Shown here: one piece after another, positions 1-36,024 of the stretch | How positions within the stretch are numbered: the stretch's first letter is position 1 | Layout: each line of letters begins with the position of its first letter | Assembly (NCBI GenBank): GCA_016205975.1 | Contig: JACQSK010000021.1 | Coordinates: forward strand, 36,324 to 100,323 | From: Candidatus Uhrbacteria bacterium | GTDB lineage: Bacteria; Patescibacteriota; Patescibacteriia; UBA9934; GWF2-40-263 | Direction of reading: 5' to 3' | DNA: 64,000 bases | Program-made: the position numbers and the translations under genes | The notes under the pieces: model-generated | The model's input: only the letters and a program-made list of their open reading frames with translations | Databases searched by the model: none | Told to the model about the DNA's origin: nothing

Positions 1-43
1 GAGACGCCGAGCGCTGTCCAGAATGTCCGTCCAAAAAATTGGT

Positions 44-748
44 TCATAGAGAATGTTTGCGCTCAATGATCCTCCTCGCTTCCTGATAGCGTTGGACCCT
101 GCGCGGCGTCCAGCCCAACCGCTTCCACGGGATGCGGTAGGCAATCTCCGGCAGCCACTGCGAGATCCCGCGGCGGCCGCGAGCGTGCGTGACGGTGAAC
201 AGGAAGGCGTCGACGAAGACGCCGGTGCGGCCCTGCTCGAGCATCGTCAGCCAGAGGTCCCAATCTTGAAAGCGCTTGAGCGAGAGGTCGAAGCCCGGGA
301 AGTGTGCGCGCCGAATGAGCGATGTCGTATGGATGAAGTTGTTGCTTCGCAAGGCGCGCGCGTCAAAGGTGTGCGAGCGGAAGCGTCGGCGCCCAAGAGA
401 GAAACTTGCGTAGGCATATGAAGCCTCGGGGTGGAGCGCGAGCGCGCGTTCAAGATCTTCGAGCAGTGTGGGCGCGGCCACGACGTCCGCGTCGCAGAAT
501 AAGATGAGATCGCCGGTCGAGCGGGAAAAACCCGCCATGCGAGCTGCTGGCGCGCCGCGATTTTCTTGAAAGACATACTGAATGCGATCCAGATACGGCG
601 CGAGCCGCGCGCGCGTGTCGTCCGTTCCGCCATCGTCCACCACGAGGATCTCCTCAGGCGGACGTGTCTGAGCGAACAAGGACTCCAGGCACGCGGCGAT
701 CGTCTTGCCGTGCTGGTAGGTTGGGATGATCACGGAGATGCCGCTCAT
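44..748 (-). CDS. glycosyltransferase family 2
   Basis: 234-aa ORF; N-terminus MSGISVIIPTYQHG...ILVVDDGGTDDT matches the GT-A/GT2 nucleotide-sugar binding region. Confidence 0.8.
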   Translation of the reverse strand: MSGISVIIPTYQHGKTIAACLESLFAQTRPPEEILVVDDGGTDDTRARLAPYLDRIQYVFQENRGAPAARMAGFSRSTGDLILFCDADVVAAPTLLEDLERALALHPEASYAYASFSLGRRRFRSHTFDARALRSNNFIHTTSLIRRAHFPGFDLSLKRFQDWDLWLTMLEQGRTGVFVDAFLFTVTHARGRRGISQWLPEIAYRIPWKRLGWTPRRVQRYQEARRIIERKHSL

Positions 749-23685: not shown

Positions 23686-25872
23686 CTAGTCGAACCGGAT
23701 CGTCTGCCCAGACCGTACCGCGCCTGTCGCGGGAGTCGAGGGTCTTGGCGCGGGCGATGGCGCATAGGCGGGCCTCGCCCGAAGGACGGGCACGGCCGAG
23801 GGAGCCCCTGCTCCCGCATTGGGTATCGATGGCGGTGCAAGGGGCGTCGAAGGTACATGGGTTCCATTTGGAACAGGAGCGCCGCCGCCTTTTTTCCCGC
23901 GCCGCCGCCGCTTCTTTTTCGCCGCGCCGTCCGATCCTTCTGCGCTTGGTGCAAACTCCCGCTTCGCCTCAGGACGAGGCACGGAGGACTCTTGCTTGCG
24001 CGCCTCACGAATCTTATTCAAACACTCCTCGCAGTACGCCGGGCGCGAGCGATCCAATTTGACGCTCGTATGAAATGCCTTTCCGCAATCTGCACAGTGA
24101 TAGGGTTGAGAGGGCGACGGCGTCCCAGAGGTGAGATTCTCAGGGCCTTTAGGCCCTTCCGGAGGAATGCCGAGGACGAGATTCTCAGGGCCTTTAGGCC
24201 CGTCCGGAGGAACGCCCCTAAAGGGGCTTTGAATTACGGAGGGCGCAAGCGCCGCGAGACTCACGGGCGGCTCAGGTGAAACCTTCTCCACCGGTGCGCC
24301 TTCCGTGGGCTTGGGTACGGGAGAACTCGACGGACTTGCCGTTGCTGACGCGGAGGCAGGCTTGGGCACGAACGGTCTGGATTTCTTTCCTCCCTTGCGT
24401 TCCTCGCGCACCAGCTCAATGCAGTCATCGCAATAAATCGGCCGCGAGCGGTCCAGCTCCACCGGCAGGATGATCTCCTTGTCGCAACGCGAACATTTGT
24501 ATTCGAACCGCGGCTTCTTGCTTTCCTTGGACGCTTTCTTTTTATCCTCAGCGGCCTTCAGCAGAGTGTCCATGTCCGCTCCCTCCATGCCGCTCCATTG
24601 CAAAATCTTTTCCTCAATCACGCTCCTGGGCTGCGCATAACGCTCGCGCGAGACCTTGATAACTTTCTCCTGCGAGTGCGTCACCTGGGCGATCGGCGGC
24701 AAGGTGATGGCCGAGAAGGGCTGGCTCGTCACACCGTCGATCAAAAGCTTAATGTAGACGTTGTACTTGGGCAGGTTGATGACGTCCTCAGGCGTGAAGC
24801 GCGGCATGAACTCGGTCTCCATGAACGTCGCGTCCGGCGAGCCGACGCGGAATGTGATGATCGTCCCGACGTTTCCGAACACGGCATCGCGCACTTCCTC
24901 GCTCAGCTGCGCGACGTACTGGTGCGCCATGGTCAAACACAGGCGGTACTTACGCGCCTCGGACAAAATACTCGCGAACGATTCCACGGCAAAATTTTGG
25001 AACTCATCCACATAGAGATAAAAATCCTTGCGCTCCTCCTCAGGAATCTCCACGCGCTCCATGGCCGCCAGCTGCATCTTAGTGATGAGGAGTCCCCCCA
25101 GCAGACGCGAGTTGTCCTCGCCGATTCTTCCCTTCGACAAATTGATGATGAAGATTTTTTCCGAATCCATGATCTCGCGCACGTTGATGGTGGACTTCAC
25201 CTGCGCCACGATGTTACGGATGACGACCGCCGAGAGGAACTGACCGATCTTGTTTTGGATCGGCGCCACGGCCTCCTGCGCGTACTTTTCGTTATAAGAA
25301 GCGAACTCCACCAGCCAGAACTGCTTGACGACCGGATCCTTCACATTGCCAACGATGCGCTTGCGGAACTCGGCATCGGAAAGCAGACGGTTGATGCCCA
25401 AGAGCGTCTGGCCGGGATTATCCAAGAGCGCCAAGAGTGTGTTGTTCAAAATATATTCCATGCGGCTGGACCACATGTTCTCCCAAATTTTCTGGAACAC
25501 GCCCATCATGCCGGAGACGACCAGGTGCTTGTGGCTGTCGCTCACGGCCTCCAAAATATTGAAGCCGACCGGAAACTCCATGTCCGCCGGATTGAAGTAC
25601 ACCACGTCGTTCATGCGCCAGCTGGGAATAAAATCAATAAGCCGCTCGGCCGTGTCGCCGTGGGGATCCACGTACGCGCAGCCGTGGCCCGCGTAGATGT
25701 CCGACAAGATGAGGTTCTCCAGGAGCACCGTCTTGCCCATGCCCGTCTTTCCAATCACATATACATGACGGCGGCGGTCGTCGGTCTTGATGCCGAACTT
25801 GGTCATCTTGTTGCGGAAGTTCGTCTTCGCAAAATAGTTGACCTCGTGGTCGTGGTCATGGTTGTACGACAT
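23686..25872 (-). CDS. FtsK/HerA/TrwB-superfamily P-loop ATPase (TraD/VirD4-coupling-protein-like NTPase domain, DUF87-like) with two C-terminal zinc-ribbon motifs
   Basis: 728 aa; Walker A RRRHVYVIGKTGMGKTVLL, Walker B FYLYVDEFQNF; no N-terminal TM segment; C-terminal Pro/Ala-rich region contains two paralogous CxxC-x17-CxxC units (KCSRCDKEIILPVELDRSRPIYCDDCIE and HCADCGKAFHTSVKLDRSRPAYCEECLN) and an internal 15-aa tandem duplication; start 4 nt after the upstream membrane-protein gene. Confidence 0.7.
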   Translation of the reverse strand: MSYNHDHDHEVNYFAKTNFRNKMTKFGIKTDDRRRHVYVIGKTGMGKTVLLENLILSDIYAGHGCAYVDPHGDTAERLIDFIPSWRMNDVVYFNPADMEFPVGFNILEAVSDSHKHLVVSGMMGVFQKIWENMWSSRMEYILNNTLLALLDNPGQTLLGINRLLSDAEFRKRIVGNVKDPVVKQFWLVEFASYNEKYAQEAVAPIQNKIGQFLSAVVIRNIVAQVKSTINVREIMDSEKIFIINLSKGRIGEDNSRLLGGLLITKMQLAAMERVEIPEEERKDFYLYVDEFQNFAVESFASILSEARKYRLCLTMAHQYVAQLSEEVRDAVFGNVGTIITFRVGSPDATFMETEFMPRFTPEDVINLPKYNVYIKLLIDGVTSQPFSAITLPPIAQVTHSQEKVIKVSRERYAQPRSVIEEKILQWSGMEGADMDTLLKAAEDKKKASKESKKPRFEYKCSRCDKEIILPVELDRSRPIYCDDCIELVREERKGGKKSRPFVPKPASASATASPSSSPVPKPTEGAPVEKVSPEPPVSLAALAPSVIQSPFRGVPPDGPKGPENLVLGIPPEGPKGPENLTSGTPSPSQPYHCADCGKAFHTSVKLDRSRPAYCEECLNKIREARKQESSVPRPEAKREFAPSAEGSDGAAKKKRRRRGKKGGGAPVPNGTHVPSTPLAPPSIPNAGAGAPSAVPVLRARPAYAPSPAPRPSTPATGAVRSGQTIRFD
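24133..24222. repeat. 45-bp tandem duplication inside the ATPase gene
   Basis: gagattctcagggcctttaggccc(t/g)tccggaggaa occurs twice 45 bp apart; encodes GIPPEGPKGPENL x2. Confidence 0.8.
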
Positions 25873-25875
25873 AGC

Positions 25876-27513
25876 TCACGTGGGAAGGTTAGGTGGAACA
25901 AAGCCATCGTCATTCGTGTCGGCGTTCTCTTCGGTAGGCGCAACAGGATGCGGGAGCGTCTCGGAGAGCGGCTCGTCCGACTCGGGCTCAGCAATCCCCG
26001 CGCCAAGAAACGACGGCGCGCCTTCTTCCTCAGGCGCAAAAATATCCGGCGCGCCAGGCAGCGACTGCTCGACAAACGTCATGGGGAGTCCCGCGGGCGG
26101 TTCGCCGCGCTTGGACTCGCTCTTCTTCACGAGCGGCGCCTTGATCGAGATGGCTGGGAAGTGCCAGAGCGTGGCCAGCTCCTCGGTGTTCAAAAAAACA
26201 GGATTCGCGCCGATGCCCCAGCCGCGTTTTTTGTAGCCGGTCATGAGGGTCTTCTGTTTTTTCGTGTAAACCCAGCGCATCCAAAAATAATCGTCCTTGG
26301 GGACCTGCGGGATGTACAGCGTAAACTTGTTCAGGTTCAGGTGCGTAAACTGGCTCCAGATGCCCTTCACAATGCCCGTGCGCTCGACTTTCACAAACGC
26401 GTTCTTCTTGGCAATGTAGATCACACGGATCTTCACGCCCAGCCCGACTTTGCCCGCCTTGAGCAAAATCGCTTCCGCCTCCTCTTTCTGCGCAGGCGAG
26501 ATCTTAAACGCCTTCCAAACGTCCGCTTCTTTCGCCTCGCCCCCAGGAAGCAACAGGCCGCTGAGATCCACATCCATCGCCTCTTTCAGAATCTCGTTGG
26601 GAATCGTCAGGAGCGACTCGGACGCTGAATCGAGAAAACTCTTTTTCTTTTTCTCCTCCACACCATACATGGTGTTCACATACTTCAATCCCTTTTTCAT
26701 CCAATCGTTGGTCGAAGGCTGCGCCAAAATCTGAATCCAAAAATGCTCGCCGGGGCGCATCGTCGCCAGCTGTTCGAGCGTGTATCCCAACGGATCCTTG
26801 ATCTCCTGCGAGATGCGATCCTCAAAGTTCACGTACGTGCGGATGGGGTACATGGAGTCGCGGTCGAGCGTCATCTCTCCGCCCCACATCTCGTACTCGT
26901 CGTTGGGATAGTCGGACGGAAACGCGAGCGTGTAGTCCTCGATCTCGCTGATCTGGGCATCGGGATAGTGGGCATAGATGCCTGCTTCGACCACGTCGCG
27001 GAACCGCGTTTGCGTGCGGATCACAAATTGGATATACCCCTCCGTCGAGACGATCTCAAACGAAAAAACCGGATGGAGCTTTCCGTCGATCCAGATTTCC
27101 TTCCAGGTGAGCGAGGACTTCGTGCCGTAGAGGTTCGCGTAAAAGTTTTCCATGGCCTTGGGCGTCTGCTCGGTCATGGAGGGAACATCCACAGCCAGGT
27201 AGGTGAACTTGAGCTTTGCCGAGTACAGCCCTTGGCGGTAGTCCTGCCAGACAATGGTGAATCCCCAGGCGAGCGTCACGGCGATCGGAATCCATCCAAA
27301 CCAAATCAGGAAGTCAAAAAGAATGGCATCAATGGGCTGGTCAAAGTAGGAAGCCGACTGGGCAGCCGCGGTTGTCGCTTGTCCGATGATCGGGATCGCA
27401 AAAAAAGAAAACATAAAGAGGGTCGAGACTAGTATAACAAAAAACCGGGGATGAACCCAGTTTTTTTGTTTGTGGATGAAGTCGGTTAGACGTTCTTCAA
27501 CCATTTCTCCCAC
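25876..27513 (-). CDS. membrane protein, two N-terminal TM helices plus large soluble domain, function unknown; operonic partner of the ATPase
   Basis: 545 aa; TM1 FFVILVSTLFMFSFFAIPIIG, TM2 ILFDFLIWFGWIPIAVTLAWGFTIVW; about 430-aa soluble domain with no motif I can assign; acidic/Pro-rich C-terminal tail. Confidence 0.55.
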   Translation of the reverse strand: MGEMVEERLTDFIHKQKNWVHPRFFVILVSTLFMFSFFAIPIIGQATTAAAQSASYFDQPIDAILFDFLIWFGWIPIAVTLAWGFTIVWQDYRQGLYSAKLKFTYLAVDVPSMTEQTPKAMENFYANLYGTKSSLTWKEIWIDGKLHPVFSFEIVSTEGYIQFVIRTQTRFRDVVEAGIYAHYPDAQISEIEDYTLAFPSDYPNDEYEMWGGEMTLDRDSMYPIRTYVNFEDRISQEIKDPLGYTLEQLATMRPGEHFWIQILAQPSTNDWMKKGLKYVNTMYGVEEKKKKSFLDSASESLLTIPNEILKEAMDVDLSGLLLPGGEAKEADVWKAFKISPAQKEEAEAILLKAGKVGLGVKIRVIYIAKKNAFVKVERTGIVKGIWSQFTHLNLNKFTLYIPQVPKDDYFWMRWVYTKKQKTLMTGYKKRGWGIGANPVFLNTEELATLWHFPAISIKAPLVKKSESKRGEPPAGLPMTFVEQSLPGAPDIFAPEEEGAPSFLGAGIAEPESDEPLSETLPHPVAPTEENADTNDDGFVPPNLPT

Positions 27514-28385
27514 GCAACTAAAGCGGGGCTGGCAAAAAAGATGGAGGAGTACGTGCCCACGGCGATGCCGATCATGAGAGCCAGGGCAAAGGGGCGCGTG
27601 GTTTCGCCGCCGAAGAAGAAGATGGCGGAGAGGGCTAAGAGGGTTGTAAGTGAGGTATTCAGCGAACGGACGAATGTCTGGCGGATGCTCTTTTCCACAA
27701 CCTCCGGGAACGGCTCGCCGGTGTGATGGGAAAGGTTTTCACGCGTGCGGTCGAACACCACAACGGTGTCCGAGATTGAGTATCCCAGGATCGTGAGAAT
27801 CGCGGCGACAAATCCAGAACCGATCTCCCAATGGAGGAAATAACCCAACAGCGCGAACACGCCAAGCGGAATGATCACGTCGTGCGCGGCCGTCAGCACC
27901 GTGATAAGCCCGTACTTCCAGGAAGCGATCGGCTCGGACACTTTTCGGAACGCCCAAGAGATGTACAGGCCGATGAGCACGAGGGTGAGCCCCACGCCCA
28001 TGAGCGAGGAACGGCGCAGCTCGGTCCCAACGGTCGGTCCGATCGAGTCGAACCTGAGCTCGGTGAACGCGCCAAAGCGTTCCTCCAGAGCCGCCAGGGT
28101 CGCCTGATGCTGTGCCTCGTCCTGCGTGACGGAACGGATGATGAGTTTATGGTTCTCGTCCGCCGACTGGACCGAGATACTCTCGAGGGACGCGAGGACG
28201 TCCTTCACCTCCTGGATGGCGGGCGCGCCTTGCTCGAATGCGAGCTCCATGAGTGAACCGCCCGTGAAGTCCACGCTGAACCTCAATCCAAAGACGAGAA
28301 GCGCGATCACGCTTAAAAGGGTCAGGACAAGCGAGAGGCCAAACCACGCCTTGCGCCATCCGACGAAAGAAAAAGAAGACATCAT
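27486..28385 (-). CDS. secF: protein translocase subunit SecF
   Basis: 299 aa; ...VDFTGGS..., six TM segments, SecF family; 4-nt overlap with secD. Confidence 0.9.
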   Translation of the reverse strand: MMSSFSFVGWRKAWFGLSLVLTLLSVIALLVFGLRFSVDFTGGSLMELAFEQGAPAIQEVKDVLASLESISVQSADENHKLIIRSVTQDEAQHQATLAALEERFGAFTELRFDSIGPTVGTELRRSSLMGVGLTLVLIGLYISWAFRKVSEPIASWKYGLITVLTAAHDVIIPLGVFALLGYFLHWEIGSGFVAAILTILGYSISDTVVVFDRTRENLSHHTGEPFPEVVEKSIRQTFVRSLNTSLTTLLALSAIFFFGGETTRPFALALMIGIAVGTYSSIFFASPALVAWEKWLKNV

Positions 28386-30445
28386 ACGTTTTTGTTTCGT
28401 GTAAGCCCGTACAGCGCCGGAGACTGGAGACCGCGCGCGGTGCGGATCGTTTTCATGTAGGCGCGCGTGACCGTGATAGCCGTAAACAGGGACAGGAGCA
28501 CGCCCACGGCCAGCGTGAGGGCGAAGCCGCGCACGAAGCTGGAGGTAAAGCTGTACAAGACCGCCGCGGAGATGAGGGTTGTGAAGTGTCCGTCGCGGAT
28601 CGGCGCCCAGGCGCGTTTGAACCCTTCATCGATGGATGAGGTGAGATCGCGGCCCGTGCGGTACTCGTCCTTGATGCGTTCAAAGATGAGCACGTTCGCG
28701 TCCACGGCAATGCCCAAGGAGAGGATCAAACCGGCCACGCCCGAAAGCGTGATGGTCACGCCAAAGAGGCGATACGCCGCCAGGTTCAAGACGACATACA
28801 GGATAAGCGCGAACGTCGCGAGCAACCCGGGCAGCCGGTAGACGGCTATCATGAACAGCACGACCAGGGCAAAACCGATGAAGGCGGCAGACAGGCTTTT
28901 CTGAAGTGAGGCCAATCCCAGCGTCGGCCCCACGGTCTCCTGCGACAAGAGCTCCACGGGAACCGGGAGCGCGCCGGCGTTCAGACGCTGTGCCAAGAGC
29001 TTGGCTTCCTCAAGCGTGAAGTCGCCGGTGATGACCGCCTGGCCGCCATAGATGGCCTGCTGTACCACGGGTGTGGAGATCGGTATTCCGTCCAAGAAGA
29101 TCGCAATAGGCTGGCCCACATACGCCTCGGTAAGCGCGCCGAAGAGCTCGCCTCCCTCGCCGTTGAACGTAAGCGCGACAAACGGCGTGCCGGCATTCTG
29201 GTCAAACTGCACGGCCGCGCGTTCCAGATGCTTTCCGGAGAGCTCTGAGTTTACCCAGTCGGACGCTTCTGGGACAACGTCCGTGAGATCTGAAAATGGC
29301 ATCAGCACGCGCTGAATCGTGTACGTTTTGAGCGCGCGTTCGTCCGTCTTATAAATGAGGTGATACCCGAACTCCGTCTCCACCACGTCGGAAATCCCGC
29401 CGACCGGAAGCGCGCTGGCCGCGAGCCCGAACGCGGGCACGTACTGATCGGGCAGGGCATATCCCAGGTCGCCGCTGTTGGAAGCGGCGGAAGGGTCTGT
29501 GGAGTTTTGGAGCGCGAGCGCGGCAAAGTTTTCAGGCGTCGCCTGGCTCTTGAGGTTGTTGATCTGGATCGAGGCATCGATTTGCTTGACGCCGCTCGTG
29601 CACCCCGTCTTGCCTTCAAAACAGATTAGGATGTGCGAGAGGCGCATCTCCTTTTTTTCTTCCTGGCTCACGTACTTAAACACGCTCACGCCGTCTTCGT
29701 TTTCAAGCAGGTTGCCGTACACCGAACCGGGAGCCATGCCCCGCTCGATCATGATCGCGTACTCGGCAAGATACGAGTCGTTGGTGACGTTGTTGATGAT
29801 GCCCTTGGTGACGGCTAGATTTTTGTCGATACTCTTTTCTGCTACGAGTGCGTCAAAGTCCTCTCCGGAGAGCGCGCGATTCAAAACGGCACGTGCGGAA
29901 GCGCGCTCGGCTTCGTTCAGAGCTGCGAGCTGGGAGAGCTCTTCTTCCGTTGGGTCACGATCGACCTCTTGTCCAGGCGTCTTGAACTCCAGAACCGGCG
30001 TCTCGCCGATCAGGGCAATCGCTTGCGACACGTCCAGCACGCCCGCCAACTCGATGATCACCCGATACGTGCCGCCGGTCGTGGTCGTCTGCACCACGGG
30101 CTCGGACACGCCAAACGCATTCACGCGCCGCTCGATCACGTCGCGTACGCCTTCCAGCGCCGCGCCGCGGTCCGCATCCGGAATCTCGCTCATGTCCGCC
30201 TCGTAGACCAAGTGCGTGCCGCCCTGCAGATCAAGACCCAGTTTGAAGGGTGACTCCGCCAGCGTGGGAGCCAGCCAACCGGTTTGGGCTTGGAGGAATG
30301 AAGCGCCTCGGTTCCAGAGAAACGGAAAGTCGTACACGCCGATACCAAGCGTCGCGACAAGCAGCAGCACGGCCGCGAGCCTCAGCCCCCAGTGCTTGTG
30401 TGCGGCTTTCGGCGCTGCCTTCTTTTTGAGTTTCCAGGTTTGCAT
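28382..30445 (-). CDS. secD: protein translocase subunit SecD with an inserted parvulin-type peptidyl-prolyl isomerase domain
   Basis: 687 aa; N-terminal TM plus periplasmic domain and C-terminal 5-TM SecD core (…LDLQGGTHLVYEA…; …TLSGVAGLILSLGIAVDANVLIFERI…); residues about 265-380 (LSHILICFEGK...SNSGDLGYALPDQYVPAFGLAASALPVGGISDVVETEFGYHLIYKTD) carry the PpiC/parvulin rotamase signature. Confidence 0.85.
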   Translation of the reverse strand: MQTWKLKKKAAPKAAHKHWGLRLAAVLLLVATLGIGVYDFPFLWNRGASFLQAQTGWLAPTLAESPFKLGLDLQGGTHLVYEADMSEIPDADRGAALEGVRDVIERRVNAFGVSEPVVQTTTTGGTYRVIIELAGVLDVSQAIALIGETPVLEFKTPGQEVDRDPTEEELSQLAALNEAERASARAVLNRALSGEDFDALVAEKSIDKNLAVTKGIINNVTNDSYLAEYAIMIERGMAPGSVYGNLLENEDGVSVFKYVSQEEKKEMRLSHILICFEGKTGCTSGVKQIDASIQINNLKSQATPENFAALALQNSTDPSAASNSGDLGYALPDQYVPAFGLAASALPVGGISDVVETEFGYHLIYKTDERALKTYTIQRVLMPFSDLTDVVPEASDWVNSELSGKHLERAAVQFDQNAGTPFVALTFNGEGGELFGALTEAYVGQPIAIFLDGIPISTPVVQQAIYGGQAVITGDFTLEEAKLLAQRLNAGALPVPVELLSQETVGPTLGLASLQKSLSAAFIGFALVVLFMIAVYRLPGLLATFALILYVVLNLAAYRLFGVTITLSGVAGLILSLGIAVDANVLIFERIKDEYRTGRDLTSSIDEGFKRAWAPIRDGHFTTLISAAVLYSFTSSFVRGFALTLAVGVLLSLFTAITVTRAYMKTIRTARGLQSPALYGLTRNKNV

Positions 30446-30512: not shown

Positions 30513-31730
30513 CTAGACTCCTGGAAGCCGGACCGTTTGTTCTGACTCCTGAGGCGCAGGAGAAAACACCCGCTTATCCGGCCAGTGGTGAACCGTGCGC
30601 AACGAAGCAAGATAGGCCCCTGACCGCTCATCGAGCTCGTGCGGGTGCCCTGGGAGCAGGTCGAGTCGCTCTTTCATACCAAGCATCTTCGCCATGCCGT
30701 TTAAGGTACGCGCGTAGTTGGTAGCGTTCAACAGGTCATTGGAAGACCGCTGGTCAATTGGGTCTGAGGCAAGGAGTCGCTCGGCGGCCGTGCGGGCGCC
30801 GGTCCATTCATTTTCTCCGAACGGATCAACAATCAGGTACGTCCACTTCCCTTCCTCGTTCCTGTACACGCGAACATTCCCGCCGCCGGCCATGTCGAGC
30901 ATCTCGTGCGTATTCACGGTGAAGGCCATCAGGCGACGCGTGAGATCGCGCAGGACGTCCGCGAGCTCATGATCCTGTGCGGCCTCTTCAAGCAGATGTA
31001 TCGTGCCCACGTGGAGGAACTTATAAAACAGGCTTGCGTCAAACGGTTCCTCCTCGCTGAACGCCATCCGGTTGAGCCGCTGGTACTCAGATACCGGGAT
31101 GTCGTAGCGCTCCACGTAACGGAACCCGAACGAGTGCACGTCTGGGTTGTGGCCCTCTTCTTTCTTCTCCGTTCTCGCCGCCTCTGGGATCGTCTCTTGA
31201 TAATGGACGATCGTCGGGACGCGAATGGTCGAGGCGGGAGCGAGGTCTGCCAGAGTATTGTGTTCGAGGATGGCTTTGGCGACTTCAGGCGTGACCGGCA
31301 CATCGCGCAGCGTTGCACGCGTCGTGAGCAAGTGAGAAGCGGGAAACGAACGGCGCAAGGCCGTCATGAACGCCGCCTCCCGCTGGAGCGCCTCTTTCAT
31401 CGCCTCGCGTTCGTCTTGATGCTCGTGCATGGCCTGTGCGCGATCGCGCACGCCCGCGTCGTCTGCGGTGGGGAACGGCTGAGCCTCCCAGCGCGCAAAC
31501 GCCTCGCGCAGCACGCCGCGCTTGAGATGGTACATGTCGGCCTTCAGGACCGCACCGCGGTGCGTTCCCTCGCGACCTTCCTTCTGGCGTACGCGAAAAA
31601 CGACGCTCTCACCGCCGTGGCCGGCGTATTCCAGATTGTCTGAAAGCAACGGATCGCGCGTGCGTTCCTCGAGGTGTTTAGCCGCAAGTTCTGAGACGCG
31701 ATCGGATGATTCGTGAAACATAAATCCCAT
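30513..31730 (-). CDS. hypothetical protein with protein-kinase-like fold features
   Basis: 405 aa; Gly-rich loop-like YAGHGGESVVFRV, VLK Lys, catalytic-loop-like MLDMAGGGNV and DPFG (DFG-like) in kinase order; tentative. Confidence 0.45.
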   Translation of the reverse strand: MGFMFHESSDRVSELAAKHLEERTRDPLLSDNLEYAGHGGESVVFRVRQKEGREGTHRGAVLKADMYHLKRGVLREAFARWEAQPFPTADDAGVRDRAQAMHEHQDEREAMKEALQREAAFMTALRRSFPASHLLTTRATLRDVPVTPEVAKAILEHNTLADLAPASTIRVPTIVHYQETIPEAARTEKKEEGHNPDVHSFGFRYVERYDIPVSEYQRLNRMAFSEEEPFDASLFYKFLHVGTIHLLEEAAQDHELADVLRDLTRRLMAFTVNTHEMLDMAGGGNVRVYRNEEGKWTYLIVDPFGENEWTGARTAAERLLASDPIDQRSSNDLLNATNYARTLNGMAKMLGMKERLDLLPGHPHELDERSGAYLASLRTVHHWPDKRVFSPAPQESEQTVRLPGV

Positions 31731-32140
31731 TATCCGGCTTTTCTTGAAGCCTTGTGCGCAAGCGCCTCGTCGTACATTTTTTCCGCGGCTCGGCTGATCT
31801 CATCAAAGTGGCGCTTGGCCTGTGAGAGGTCGTTCACGGTCGCCTCCAGCGCGTTCAAAAAATCAATCGCCTGACGCACAGACTCGGGTACGCGCGAATG
31901 AATAAACTCGTCTTGTTCTTTTTCGTCCTCAATCGCGTCCATGCGATCGATCCATGGTTGAATCTCCGCATTCAAGGCGTTGGTCATCTCTTTGAGGCGA
32001 CCCAGTTCCATGAGGATGCGGGCGACTTCGAGCTGTGCGGACTTGAACGTCTCACGAAGTTCGTTCGGACGATTCTTTGGCAGCTCCGCGGCCGTGGCGT
32101 AGGCGAGCGCTTCTTGCTCGCTCAGATGTTCATGGGACAT
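31730..32140 (-). CDS. hypothetical alpha-helical protein
   Basis: 136 aa, charged/helical; stop/start abut neighbours; no motif. Confidence 0.4.
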   Translation of the reverse strand: MSHEHLSEQEALAYATAAELPKNRPNELRETFKSAQLEVARILMELGRLKEMTNALNAEIQPWIDRMDAIEDEKEQDEFIHSRVPESVRQAIDFLNALEATVNDLSQAKRHFDEISRAAEKMYDEALAHKASRKAG

Positions 32141-33247: not shown

Positions 33248-33281
33248 AGGTCGTATTGGTCCTATGGGACCTATTGCCCAT
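33243..33281. repeat. short dispersed repeat with 9-bp periodicity, copy B
   Basis: ccataggtcgtattggtcctatgggacctattgcccatg; direct repeat of copy A with one extra 9-nt unit; contains the secA stop codon and the 4HB gene's upstream start. Confidence 0.6.
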
Positions 33282-36024
33282 GACACTTCTTAAACTTTTT
33301 GCCAGAACCACAATAACACGGGTCGTTGCGGCCGACCTTCGCTTGCGGGGAACCAGGCTGAAGCCTGGGGCTACCATCCGTACCGCGAGCGACTATCGTA
33401 TTGGCAGCACCCTGAAGCGTCACGCCCGCTTTCTGAAACACGGATCGGCCGAGCTCCATCTGCACTTTCATGTCCACGGCGTGCTTGGCGTACTTAAAAA
33501 ACGTATACGTGATCTCATGGTTGATGGAACCCAACAGATTTTGGAACAGGCCAAACCCTTCCCGCTTGTACTCGACTAAAGGATCGCGCTGGCCGTAGCC
33601 CTGCAGACCGATACCTGTGCGCAGAGCGCTCATGGCGGCCAGGTGATCAATCCACAGGGTGTCGATGGATCGCAGGATCACGCCGCGTTCGATGTTGTAG
33701 GTGCTCTTGCGATCCTCAAAAACATCGTAGAGCTTGTCATACTGCGAGCGGACGGCCTCCATGATTTTCACGATGAACTCGGTCCGTCCTTGGGCAAGCG
33801 CTTCGCGATCTTGCGCGGCAGAAAGCCCGATGCCCTGCAGACCCTCCTTCTGTTCCTCTGAAAGCGCCACGATCGTCGAGACGGTCTCGACGATTTCCTT
33901 TCGATTCCAGCCGCCGTCATCCTCTACGCCTCCCTCACTGGTGTGGAACAACACGATCTGTTCCACCTCTCCCTCGATCACGTCCAGCACGCGGTCGCGC
34001 AGCTTCTCGGGCTCCTGCGCGAACAGCTCGAGGATCTCACGCCGTCGCGCATAGATCACCTCACGGTGCTTGTTCAACACATCGTCATACTCCAAGAGGT
34101 GCTTGCGCGAATCGAAGTGATACCCCTCCACGCGCGTCTGCGCCTTTTCAATGGAGCCGGTGATGAGTTTGTTCTCAATGGGCATGTCGTCGGGAATCCC
34201 CAGGCGGTCCATCATGCCGCGCGCGCGATCAGAGCCGAAGATGCGCATGAGCCCATCCTCCATCGACAGATAAAATTGCGTCGAGCCGGGATCGCCCTGG
34301 CGACCAGAACGCCCGCGCAGCTGGTTGTCGATGCGCCGCGCGTCATGGCGCTCGGTGCCGATGACGTGCAGGCCTCCCAGCTCCTTCACGCGCGCTTCCG
34401 CCTCCGGCGAGCCGGGATTTCCTCCGAGCTTGATGTCCACGCCGCGCCCGGCCATGTTGGTCGCGATCGTGACCGCGCTGACCTGCCCGGCTTGGGCGAT
34501 AATGTCGGCCTCGCGATCATGGTTCTTGGCATTGAGCACCTCATGGCGCACCCCCGCGTTGGTTAAGAGGAGTGACAACACTTCGTTTTTCTCCACGCTG
34601 ACCGTGCCCACCAACACTGGCTGACCCTTTTGCTGCTTCTCTTGAATGTCGCGCACGACTGCCTGAAACTTTCCCTGCTCGCTCTTAAAAATCTTGTCGC
34701 CCAGGTCCGCGCGCGAGACCGGTTTGTTCGTCGGAATCTCGACGACTTCCAGGTTGTAGATTTTAGAAAACTCCTCCGCCTCGGTGGCGGCCGTTCCGGT
34801 CATCCCCGCGAGCTTGTGGTACATGCGGAAAAGATTTTGAAAGGTAATCGTCGCCAGCGTCTGGCTCTCACGCTGAATCGCCACGCCCTCCTTGGCTTCG
34901 ATCGCCTGGTGGATCCCCTCGGAAAACCGACGGCCCGGCATGAGACGCCCCGTGAACTCGTCCACGATAATCACCTCGCCTTCCTTGATGACATAGTGGA
35001 CGTCCTTCTGATAGTTGGCTCGCGCGCGCAGAGCCGTGTCGGCGTAGCGCTGATACTGTCCTTGGTCCACGGCGTACAGGTTTTCGATCGAGAGCGCGCG
35101 CTCGATATGCTCGATGCCCGCCTCCGTCAGCGTCGCCGCGCGCATTTTTTCGTCTACGTTGTAATCCTCGTTCTCCTTGAGGCTTGCCACGATCTGTGCA
35201 AACCGGTAGTAGAGGTCATTCGATTTTTCCGCGGGCGCGGAGATGATGAGCGGCGTACGCGCCTCGTCAATCAGGATGGAATCCACCTCGTCCACGATCG
35301 CATAGTGCAGCTCGCGCATGACGCACGCGTCTATGGAGGGTGCCATGTTGTCGCGCAGGTAGTCGAATCCAAACTGGTTGTTGGTGCCGTAGGTGATGTC
35401 CGCCTGGTACGCCTCGCTCCGAGATACGGGCCGCAGGTAATCCTCGCGCACATGGAACGAGCCGGTCGCATCGCGCTCTCGATCGGCCATCTCCCCATCG
35501 AGTGTTTCCTCGGCGTGCTTGAACGCGGGGTCATAGATGAGCCCGCTCTCGTGCTGGATCACACCCACGCTCATGCCCAAGGCATGATAAATCTGTCCCA
35601 TCCACACCGCGTCGCGGCGCGCGAGATAATCGTTCACCGTCACCAGATGGCAGCCCTGTCCGCGCAAGGCGTTCGTGTACAAGGCGAGCGTGGAAGTGAG
35701 CGTCTTGCCTTCTCCGGTGCGCATCTCCGCGATCTGTCCGCGATGCAGCGCGAGTCCGCCGACGAGCTGTACGTCGAAATGCCTCTGCCCAAGCGTGCGC
35801 CTGGCCGCCTCACGCACCACGGCAAACGTCTCATACATAAGATCGTCGAGCGACGCCCCTTGCGCAAGCTGCTCTCTAAAACCAGAGGTCTTTGCCCGAA
35901 GCTCCTCATCCGTGAGCGCCATAATCGTGGGCTCCAGTGCGTTGATCTTCTGCACTTCCCTCTCAAACGCCGCGAGCATTTTCCTATTCGGATCTCCAAA
36001 CAAAAGTTTCAAAAATTTCTGCAT
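33271..36024 (-). CDS. secA: preprotein translocase ATPase SecA
   Basis: 917 aa; N-terminus MQKFLKLLFGDPNRK..., DEAD-like motor motifs, C-terminal zinc-binding tail CYCGSGKKFKKCHG. Confidence 0.95.
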   Translation of the reverse strand: MQKFLKLLFGDPNRKMLAAFEREVQKINALEPTIMALTDEELRAKTSGFREQLAQGASLDDLMYETFAVVREAARRTLGQRHFDVQLVGGLALHRGQIAEMRTGEGKTLTSTLALYTNALRGQGCHLVTVNDYLARRDAVWMGQIYHALGMSVGVIQHESGLIYDPAFKHAEETLDGEMADRERDATGSFHVREDYLRPVSRSEAYQADITYGTNNQFGFDYLRDNMAPSIDACVMRELHYAIVDEVDSILIDEARTPLIISAPAEKSNDLYYRFAQIVASLKENEDYNVDEKMRAATLTEAGIEHIERALSIENLYAVDQGQYQRYADTALRARANYQKDVHYVIKEGEVIIVDEFTGRLMPGRRFSEGIHQAIEAKEGVAIQRESQTLATITFQNLFRMYHKLAGMTGTAATEAEEFSKIYNLEVVEIPTNKPVSRADLGDKIFKSEQGKFQAVVRDIQEKQQKGQPVLVGTVSVEKNEVLSLLLTNAGVRHEVLNAKNHDREADIIAQAGQVSAVTIATNMAGRGVDIKLGGNPGSPEAEARVKELGGLHVIGTERHDARRIDNQLRGRSGRQGDPGSTQFYLSMEDGLMRIFGSDRARGMMDRLGIPDDMPIENKLITGSIEKAQTRVEGYHFDSRKHLLEYDDVLNKHREVIYARRREILELFAQEPEKLRDRVLDVIEGEVEQIVLFHTSEGGVEDDGGWNRKEIVETVSTIVALSEEQKEGLQGIGLSAAQDREALAQGRTEFIVKIMEAVRSQYDKLYDVFEDRKSTYNIERGVILRSIDTLWIDHLAAMSALRTGIGLQGYGQRDPLVEYKREGFGLFQNLLGSINHEITYTFFKYAKHAVDMKVQMELGRSVFQKAGVTLQGAANTIVARGTDGSPRLQPGSPQAKVGRNDPCYCGSGKKFKKCHGQ

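Follow-up and report, generated by a model that had tools for sequence, protein, structure and literature searches.

SecD of a Candidatus Uhrbacteria bacterium carries a two-module parvulin insert between the base and head of its P1 domain

A SecD with an interrupted P1 domain

We analysed a stretch of 64,000 nucleotides from a Candidatus Uhrbacteria bacterium (GenBank assembly GCA_016205975.1, contig JACQSK010000021.1, positions 36,324 to 100,323), hereafter the window, and focus on its secD gene, whose product carries a parvulin-type unit within its P1 domain. The gene lies on the minus strand (28382..30445 in window coordinates, which are used throughout) and encodes 687 residues plus a stop codon; it is delimited by the list of open reading frames (ORFs), the NCBIfam model TIGR01129 and the alignment to Thermus SecDF (3aqp), and its ATG start is backed by a conserved N terminus, MQTW, in 43 homologues. 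An earlier reading of the letters alone (the sequence-only reading) had described the product as an otherwise normal SecD, with an N-terminal transmembrane (TM) helix, a TM core and a separate secF, into which a parvulin domain is inserted. The family model, the Pfam domains, the proton-relay residue and the overlap with secF all agree with the first half of this description, and the domain matches given further below with the second.

The product is a genuine SecD. It passes the family threshold of TIGR01129 (secD) with 366 bits against a cut-off of 244.4, and Pfam places Sec_GG (PF07549) at residues 65-86, SecD_1st (PF21760) at 99-156, SecDF_P1_head (PF22599) at 401-495 (E = 7e-29) and SecD_SecF_C (PF02355) at 497-666, all above their gathering thresholds and in canonical SecD order. 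Thermus SecDF (3aqp) is matched with E = 1.9e-77 by phmmer, and Foldseek finds the canonical SecDF structures (Thermus 3AQP/5YHF, Deinococcus 5XAN) with E = 1e-19 to 1e-23. The proton-relay aspartate is present as D582, opposite Thermus D340 in TM4 (GIAVDANVLIFERIK aligned with GAAVDGNVLSFERIK), and is invariant in sets of 43 and 23 homologues. NCBI holds a 100% identical protein named 'SecD [Candidatus Uhrbacteria bacterium]', with the lineage Patescibacteria group, Parcubacteria group, Ca. Uhriibacteriota.

Six TM helices are recognized in total from Pfam and an AlphaFold2 model. TM1, the signal-anchor helix (residues 19-39; 30329..30391, minus strand), is a helix in the model and precedes Sec_GG as in canonical SecD. 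It is followed by the N-terminal part of the P1 base, which comprises Sec_GG and SecD_1st (residues 65-156; 29978..30253, minus), corresponds to residues 25-120 of Thermus SecDF and ends in a strand, VLEFK, that heads towards the P1 head. The head subdomain (residues 401-495; 28961..29245, minus) covers profile positions 20-114 of PF22599 and corresponds to Thermus SecDF from residue 160 onwards, and the PF02355 core of TM2-TM6, with D582, closes the protein (residues 496-670; 28436..28960, minus). Directly downstream lies secF (27486..28385, minus; 299 residues), which scores 280.6 bits against TIGR00966 (cut-off 160). Its ATG and the secD stop codon overlap as ATGA, and the two genes are translationally coupled. 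A genome scan with one genome per GTDB species yielded at least 591 relatives, of which we retained the 80 best-matching loci; in 75 of these 80, secF adjoins or is fused to secD.

Two parvulin modules between the P1 base and head

When the protein is aligned to Thermus SecDF, query residues 60-159 pair with residues 25-120 and query residues 402-669 with residues 160-427, leaving about 242 query residues (160-401) in place of about 39 in Thermus (121-159). The parvulin insert itself takes up roughly 225 of these (residues 160-383) and contains two parvulin-fold modules, here called A and B. A linker (residues 384-400; 29246..29296, minus) leads from the insert to the P1 head; its W397 is invariant, and it aligns with 'SPWVNT' of an insert-free SecD from a relative (locus L053).

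Module B (residues 263-372; 29330..29659, minus), delimited by both rotamase profiles, Foldseek and conservation, is by sequence and predicted fold a complete PpiC-type parvulin. PF00639 (Rotamase) matches residues 271-367 with E = 1.3e-22 and 81 bits (cut-off 21.7), and PF13616 (Rotamase_3) residues 255-369 with E = 1.4e-21; with E values of about 1e-22, the domain inserted between SecD_1st and P1_head is thus a parvulin, found above the gathering thresholds together with the SecD domains. The textbook signature that had first drawn attention to the segment, RLSHILI at residues 268-274 and SNSGDLGY...FGYHLIYK at 322-366, comes with E values that exclude chance. The module carries H271, C275, C282, S315, D317, F339 and H362, and its elements follow the canonical order β1-α1-α2-α3-β2-α4-β3-β4. 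Foldseek superposes the predicted model on 4g2p (SurA-P2), 2jzv (Staphylococcus aureus PrsA) and 6gmp (TbPar42) with a root-mean-square deviation (rmsd) of 2.0-2.8 Å and TM-scores of 0.79-0.83, the latter spanning 0.75-0.83 at the same rmsd across the peptidyl-prolyl isomerase (PPIase) domains of SurA-P2, PrsA, Pin1 and TbPar42. Structure prediction accordingly gives a parvulin fold, with a predicted local distance difference test (pLDDT) score above 90 and 2.0-2.8 Å onto the SurA-P2, PrsA and Pin1 PPIase domains. That the segment might be a plain P1-head subdomain with a superficial likeness to parvulins is excluded by the Pfam E values of about 1e-22 and by these superpositions.

Module A (residues 160-262; 29660..29968, minus) is recognized from a PF00639 match of its own, a repeated secondary structure and pLDDT scores of 94-98. 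Scanned alone, residues 160-263 reach 24.2 bits against PF00639 (gathering threshold 21.7; profile positions 16-94). The module consists of α1-α2-α3-β2-α4-β3-β4, without the N-terminal β1, and the three helices, strand, helix and two strands of residues 167-262 repeat those of residues 288-370. Both catalytic histidines are missing, with N, E, S or D at the position equivalent to H362. BLASTP between the two modules gives a weak match of 37 residues (E = 0.002), so the identity of module A rested on Pfam and predicted structure, and by these it is a degenerate parvulin whose membership lies at the level of the fold. A PrsA-like helical NC domain was also considered for residues 157-254 and excluded, as the region has a parvulin fold in the AlphaFold2 model and matches PF00639 by itself.

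To place the insertion site, we compared an insert-free SecD (L053), a SecD with module A only (P0120), a short form (L058), a long form and a single-chain SecDF (L049). In all of them the SecD_1st match ends in '...LEFK' and the P1_head match begins at profile position 17-20; the base-to-head connector of the insert-free L053 is 48 residues long. Judged from these alignments, the insertion site is the variable connector at the junction of P1 base and P1 head, outside the head interior. The sequence-only reading had seen about 115 parvulin residues embedded in P1. Both flanks are indeed SecD, but the whole insert of about 225 residues includes a second, degenerate module that had been missed, as had the apparently nested and permuted topology described below, and the Thermus alignment and the variants put the site at the base-to-head junction rather than inside the head.

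With an alignment of 43 sequences, AlphaFold2 models the full-length SecD with a mean pLDDT of 81.5 and a predicted template modelling (pTM) score of 0.44, and the insert alone with a pLDDT of 90.6 and a pTM of 0.76. The best Foldseek match to the whole insert is SurA, aligned over 225-232 columns that span both SurA parvulin domains.

Strand order in module A

The β1 strand that module A lacks at its N terminus may be found at the far end of the insert, beyond module B. There, a trailing strand, KTYTIQRVLMPF (residues 373-383; 29297..29329, minus), aligns with a His-bearing 'SHILI' strand that comes after β4 in relatives with a shorter SecD (the short forms), and in the insert-only model it has a pLDDT of 96-98, compared with about 50 for the SecD strand 148-157. 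AlphaFold2 predicts two uninterrupted strands of 23 residues each (252-274 and 360-382; pLDDT 96-98). If β1 of module B (268-274) pairs with its β4 (360-366) as in every parvulin, the same antiparallel register would pair β4 of module A (252-258) with residues 376-382; these pairings were deduced from DSSP strings and sequence logic. The trailing 'TYTIQRVLM' would in this way supply the missing β1 of module A.

Natural variants bear on the same arrangement. Two independent Uhrbacteria-like SecDs of 580-582 residues (P0120 and P0125) read '...VSVFKYLNSSQ-TEDGTP-AYTIQRILMPF...': module B is precisely missing, and a six-residue turn joins β4 of module A to the trailing strand. In 18 of 19 short-form loci, 'FGYHIIK' (β4) is followed by a loop of 10-30 residues and then by '[AS]xHIL[ILF]', a β1 with the first catalytic histidine. 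Moving this β1 to the front extends the PF00639 match of short forms from positions 9-15..96 to 1..96 with a gain of 1.7-4.0 bits, and adds 1.5-7.7 bits to PF13616, in four of four cases each. The same move on module A of the query gives 23.8 bits as against 24.2 with PF00639 and no gain in coverage, its trailing strand having lost the β1 signature. The equal strands, the P0120 and P0125 variants and the strand order of the short forms are the reasons for reading module A as apparently circularly permuted, with module B nested in its β4-β1 hairpin.

Conservation of the active site in module B

We examined conservation in 59 canonical B modules, one genome per species, with overall identities of 33-64%. 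H271, H362 and G360 are present in all 59, F339 in 58, L327 in 56 and S315 in 55, and position 317 is acidic in 54 (Glu in 29, Asp in 25). Comparing by eye with the Pin1 sequence, we take H271, H362, F339, L327, S315 and position 317 to be Pin1 H59, H157, F134, L122, S111 and C113. Module B thus has the whole active-site set, that is, two histidines, the acidic residue at the 113 position, the serine and the hydrophobic pocket, and module A does not. An aspartate at the Pin1 C113 position has been reported to be functional (10.1101/2024.09.05.611430). Module A has retained the fold although it lacks this set, so that folding alone does not demand it, and by this comparison of sequences their conservation in module B reflects function, not foldability. 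Over 43 homologues, mean column identity is 0.57 in module A, 0.66 in module B, 0.78 in the TM core, 0.81 in the P1 head and 0.86 in the P1 base, the most conserved part of SecD.

A second pattern concerns C275 and C282 ('ICFEGKTGC'), which stand just after β1. Among the 59 loci, both are cysteines in 38, both are something else in 21 and none has a single one, an all-or-none pattern as expected for a disulfide, although common descent of the loci inflates the Fisher p-value. Diverse residue pairs take their place (QS, QT, SS, AA, PS, GN and others), as if the two cysteines had been lost together on several independent occasions. In most lineages, a C275-C282 disulfide would stabilize module B. 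Such a pair implies disulfide formation outside the membrane, and the oxidative-folding machinery of this group of organisms is poorly known.

Taken with the predicted fold and with parvulins known to act at the translocon, these patterns point to a parvulin unit that is probably a prolyl isomerase or chaperone acting on chains leaving SecYEG, as part of a functional SecD. We find it rather unlikely that the insert is instead a non-catalytic extension of the P1 head for substrate capture or holding, with the active-site residues lining a peptide-binding groove. Such a holdase would account for the retention of module A (pLDDT above 94) despite its lost catalytic residues and for the existence of SecDs with module A only (P0120, P0125); the insert also matches the SurA P1 peptide complex 2pv1 structurally (TM-score 0.81), and the P1 head itself binds polypeptide (PMC9987972, citing structural work on SecDF). 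Yet the two invariant histidines and the acidic residue at 317 (54 of 59) form the pattern of active parvulins, unlike module A in the same proteins, and the single-module short forms hold the full catalytic set despite their permutation.

Distribution and natural variants

The architecture is widespread. Of the 120 nearest clusters at 90% identity, 119 combine PF00639 or PF13616 with SecD domains, all of them annotated only as SecD, and a parvulin module stands at the same site in 79 of the 80 best SecD loci. Parvulin inserts, for which the sequence-only reading had suggested a survey of related lineages, are thus a lineage-wide trait in many Patescibacteria and not a one-off. Given this spread, a mis-assembly, a frameshifted gene pair or a decaying pseudogene is effectively refuted as an explanation: the source is a metagenome-assembled genome (MAG) of an uncultured organism, but the ORF is unbroken, the reading frame runs from the insert into conserved SecD domains on either side, an identical protein is found on 6 contigs of up to 197 kb, and the clusters and loci that share the architecture come from many independent studies.

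The 80 loci comprise 59 long forms, 19 short forms, one truncated fragment and one insert-free SecD. Long forms occur in Uhr-, Magasanik- and Falkowbacteria, the 'Parcubacteria group', Peri-/Peregrinibacteria and Gracilibacteria. Short forms, of about 550-610 residues, have one circularly permuted module with the active-site residues retained and are found in Kerfeld-, Buchananbacteria and others. The Peri-/Peregrinibacteria and Gracilibacteria have single-chain SecDFs of 1010-1140 residues with a long parvulin insert (L049, L051, L052, L054, L057, L061, L065, L069 and L071). In this type there appear to be about 45 extra hydrophobic residues inside the SecD TM core, where the match spans about 650 nucleotides compared with about 510 (L049 sequence). 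The insert-free SecD, from an Uhrbacteria genome (L053, 5833-7278), has 481 residues, and P0120 and P0125 retain only the degenerate module A.

About thirty of the MAGs, which are TPA records (L002, L006, L008, L009, L013, L016, L023 and others), bear titles such as 'uncultured Gammaproteobacteria', but also 'Binatia', 'Hyphomicrobiales', 'Bdellovibrionales' and 'Lysobacteraceae'. Their SecDs are 45-63% identical to the Uhrbacteria protein and carry the same insert of the candidate phyla radiation (CPR) type; we regard these labels as unreliable because that insert and the synteny are shared.

A search with the insert alone against 1.8 billion 50%-identity representatives returned 23 SecD fusions among the top 150 matches, and by phmmer and a scan for hydrophobicity another 45 long representatives in that set, each with at most one or two hydrophobic segments, are no SecDs. 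Four of the top 150 (P0207, P0221, P0222 and P0239) form a separate small family of 280-297 residues, in which an N-terminal TM anchor is followed by a P1 head (PF22599, E about 1e-16) and a canonical parvulin with a CxxxxxxC pair. These proteins amount to a stand-alone P1 head plus parvulin, arranged in the opposite order to that of SecD, and their sequences suggest that the P1 head and the parvulin work together as a unit.

Neighbouring genes

Downstream of secF lie a membrane protein of 545 residues without a Pfam match (25876-27513, minus) and a TrwB/VirD4-like type-IV coupling ATPase of 728 residues (23686-25872, minus), whose C terminus has treble-clef or zinc-ribbon motifs and a Pro-rich tail. 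The former is linked to secDF in 52 and the latter in 39 of the 80 related loci. On the other side, secA, maf, two ORFs (30513-31730 and 31730-32140), secD and secF are all on the same strand; the two ORFs have no family match and no counterpart in the 80 related loci. Between secA and maf, a four-helix-bundle protein of the 23S-rRNA-intervening-sequence type (PF05635; 32705-33286, minus) overlaps with its start the 3' end of secA (33271-36024, minus) by 16 nucleotides.

The synteny of secDF with the membrane protein and the ATPase would suit an architectural role, which we consider improbable. Here the insert, with no direct part in folding, would make the P1 arm longer as a rigid spacer, or would dock SecD onto another component of the envelope, such as the wall, an S-layer, the neighbouring 545-residue membrane protein or a partner protein. 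Such a role would also agree with the predicted rigidity of the unit, whose two 23-residue strands run through both modules (insert pTM 0.76), and with the unusually long α1 of module A, a helix of 26 residues in the AlphaFold2 model. However, a spacer would need no intact active site, yet the active site is conserved in 59 of 59 modules, and both the stand-alone P1-head-parvulin proteins and published contacts between parvulins and SecDF (PMC9987972; 10.1101/2025.04.25.650208) point to substrate handling.

Discussion

The isomerase or chaperone reading can be put in mechanistic terms. Structural work on SecDF, which covers its F, I and super-F conformations (PDB 3AQP, 5XAN and 5YHF), has established that over a proton-driven cycle the head swings against the base. 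Moved by the proton-motive force, the P1 head binds the chain as it emerges and assists in pulling and releasing it, and in all AlphaFold models of SurA with SecDF the two SurA parvulin domains sit on the P1 head (PMC9987972). The Uhrbacteria protein would be a functional SecD that, together with SecF, forms an accessory motor for the Sec translocon powered by protons, and a rigid two-module parvulin unit would be grafted where the fixed base of P1 meets its swinging head. Module A would serve as a scaffold and possibly also as a peptide-binding surface, and module B as a PpiC-type prolyl isomerase that catalyses Xaa-Pro cis/trans isomerization. The unit would be kept beside the SecYEG exit, where it would bind unfolded chains on emergence, because the P1 head captures the emerging polypeptide and moves in the proton-driven cycle; in these bacteria with small genomes it would take on the task for which free or membrane-anchored parvulins such as PrsA, PpiD, SurA or Mycoplasma Mdp444 dock on the translocon in other organisms. 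Within the 64-kb window, no other parvulin is encoded.

By homology with SecD we infer that the insert faces the outside. The strand pairing between modules A and B, the disulfide, catalysis and action on translocating substrates are likewise expected from sequence and model, and the parvulin unit should travel with the P1 head or next to it. The idea of a foldase within the translocon, already raised in the sequence-only reading, fits because the active site is conserved and because non-covalent associations of parvulins with SecDF have been published; it would be a covalent version of the associations of PrsA, PpiD, SurA and the Mycoplasma Mdp proteins at the translocon.

Several points weigh against this interpretation. 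Both parvulin histidines also have a structural, hydrogen-bonding role in Pin1, so their conservation alone is no proof of catalysis, and in PpiD and SurA-P1 the parvulin domain serves as a chaperone module without activity. At the pocket position of Pin1 Met130 the query has Tyr, where 41 of the 59 relatives have Met. With its pTM of 0.44, the full-length model does not fix the placement of the unit relative to the head, the base or SecY. The insert is dispensable in some relatives, being absent from L053 and lacking its active module in P0120 and P0125.

A bolder proposal, which we think unlikely, would mechanically couple parvulin binding and release to the SecDF power stroke, making the protein an energy-coupled 'pull-and-fold' machine outside the cytoplasm, where ATP is unavailable, and would see in the short forms the first natural circularly permuted parvulin, and in the long form one parvulin within a permuted parvulin within SecD. 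If true, these forms would be a record, within one essential machine across the CPR, of domains evolving through duplication, permutation and nesting.

In full-text literature searches, neither a fusion of SecD with a parvulin nor a permuted parvulin turned up. The co-occurrence of the domains is already visible in precomputed Pfam annotations; the covalent and apparently nested, permuted arrangement is, as far as these searches reach, unreported. A permuted, nested parvulin is unusual as a protein architecture, and owing to this topology automated annotation gives a partial or single 'rotamase' match or just 'SecD'. What is seen here is no new principle: both the machine and the enzyme fold are known, and it is their arrangement, conserved across a large bacterial radiation, that is new. 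Its interest lies in the recruitment of extracytoplasmic chaperones to the Sec exit, a question under active study. For PpiD/YfgM, SurA and the Mycoplasma dome the evidence is recent, and part of it comes from maps of low resolution and from AlphaFold models. A lineage-wide covalent fusion is 'Rosetta-stone' evidence for the P1 head and parvulin foldases acting together, and a system within a single polypeptide offers a compact test case, a natural experiment on the coupling between folding factors and the Sec exit. It also suggests how CPR bacteria, with genomes of about 1 Mb, economize on envelope proteostasis.

With canonical SecDF (Thermus 3AQP/5YHF, Deinococcus 5XAN), the query shares the TM core, the GG motif, the P1 base and head, the proton-relay aspartate and the adjacent secF; it differs in the two parvulin modules of its connector, no solved SecDF having a catalytic domain in P1. 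The parvulin proteins that act along the same pathway are functional analogies, and judged by sequence scores the query is a member of none of the PrsA, SurA and PpiD families, its scores being about a tenth of the PrsA and SurA cut-offs. In SurA (Escherichia coli 1M5Y) an inactive parvulin domain is followed by an active one, and the query likewise has a degenerate module ahead of one that keeps its catalytic residues. SurA, however, is soluble and periplasmic, with a chaperone core of N- and C-terminal parts and parvulins that are sequential rather than nested; the alignment is confined to the parvulin parts, which are set at a different geometry to each other (rmsd 15-16 Å over both domains), and the SurA model NF008038 gives 46.3 bits against a cut-off of 394.

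PrsA of Bacillus and Staphylococcus is likewise an extracytoplasmic, membrane-tethered parvulin; it acts on Sec substrates in bacteria that lack an outer membrane, and its PPIase domain superposes on the insert at 2.4-2.8 Å (2jzv, 6vj4, 4wo7 and 1zk6). It is, however, a separate, dimeric lipoprotein whose parvulin sits inside a SurA-like NC chaperone domain, whereas here the host is SecD P1; the NCBIfam PrsA models give 31-50 bits against cut-offs of 343-361, and the N terminus is the SecD TM1, without a lipobox. In PpiD, which binds SecY/SecG, the parvulin domain is catalytically inactive. Together with YfgM, E. coli PpiD provides a membrane-anchored parvulin-fold protein at the SecYEG exit that promotes translocation (PMC9643414), but as a separate single-pass protein, whereas the query has six TM helices and SecD domains. 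A Pfam scan of the query SecD found no SurA_N-type, NC or PpiD domain.

The closest parallel in setting comes from Mycoplasma pneumoniae, in which PrsA-like PPIC lipoproteins form a dome on SecDF (10.1101/2025.04.25.650208) and substrate density touches one catalytically intact PPIC domain, the others being degenerate (10.1101/2025.04.25.650208; 10.1101/2024.09.05.611430). Mdp436, Mdp444 and Mdp489 are, like the insert, of the parvulin type and stably associated with SecDF, and their host, too, has a reduced genome and lacks an outer membrane. They differ in being large, separate lipoproteins that assemble non-covalently into a trimeric chamber, whereas the Uhrbacteria SecD would hold its parvulins in a single polypeptide, as what appears to be a nested, permuted pair.

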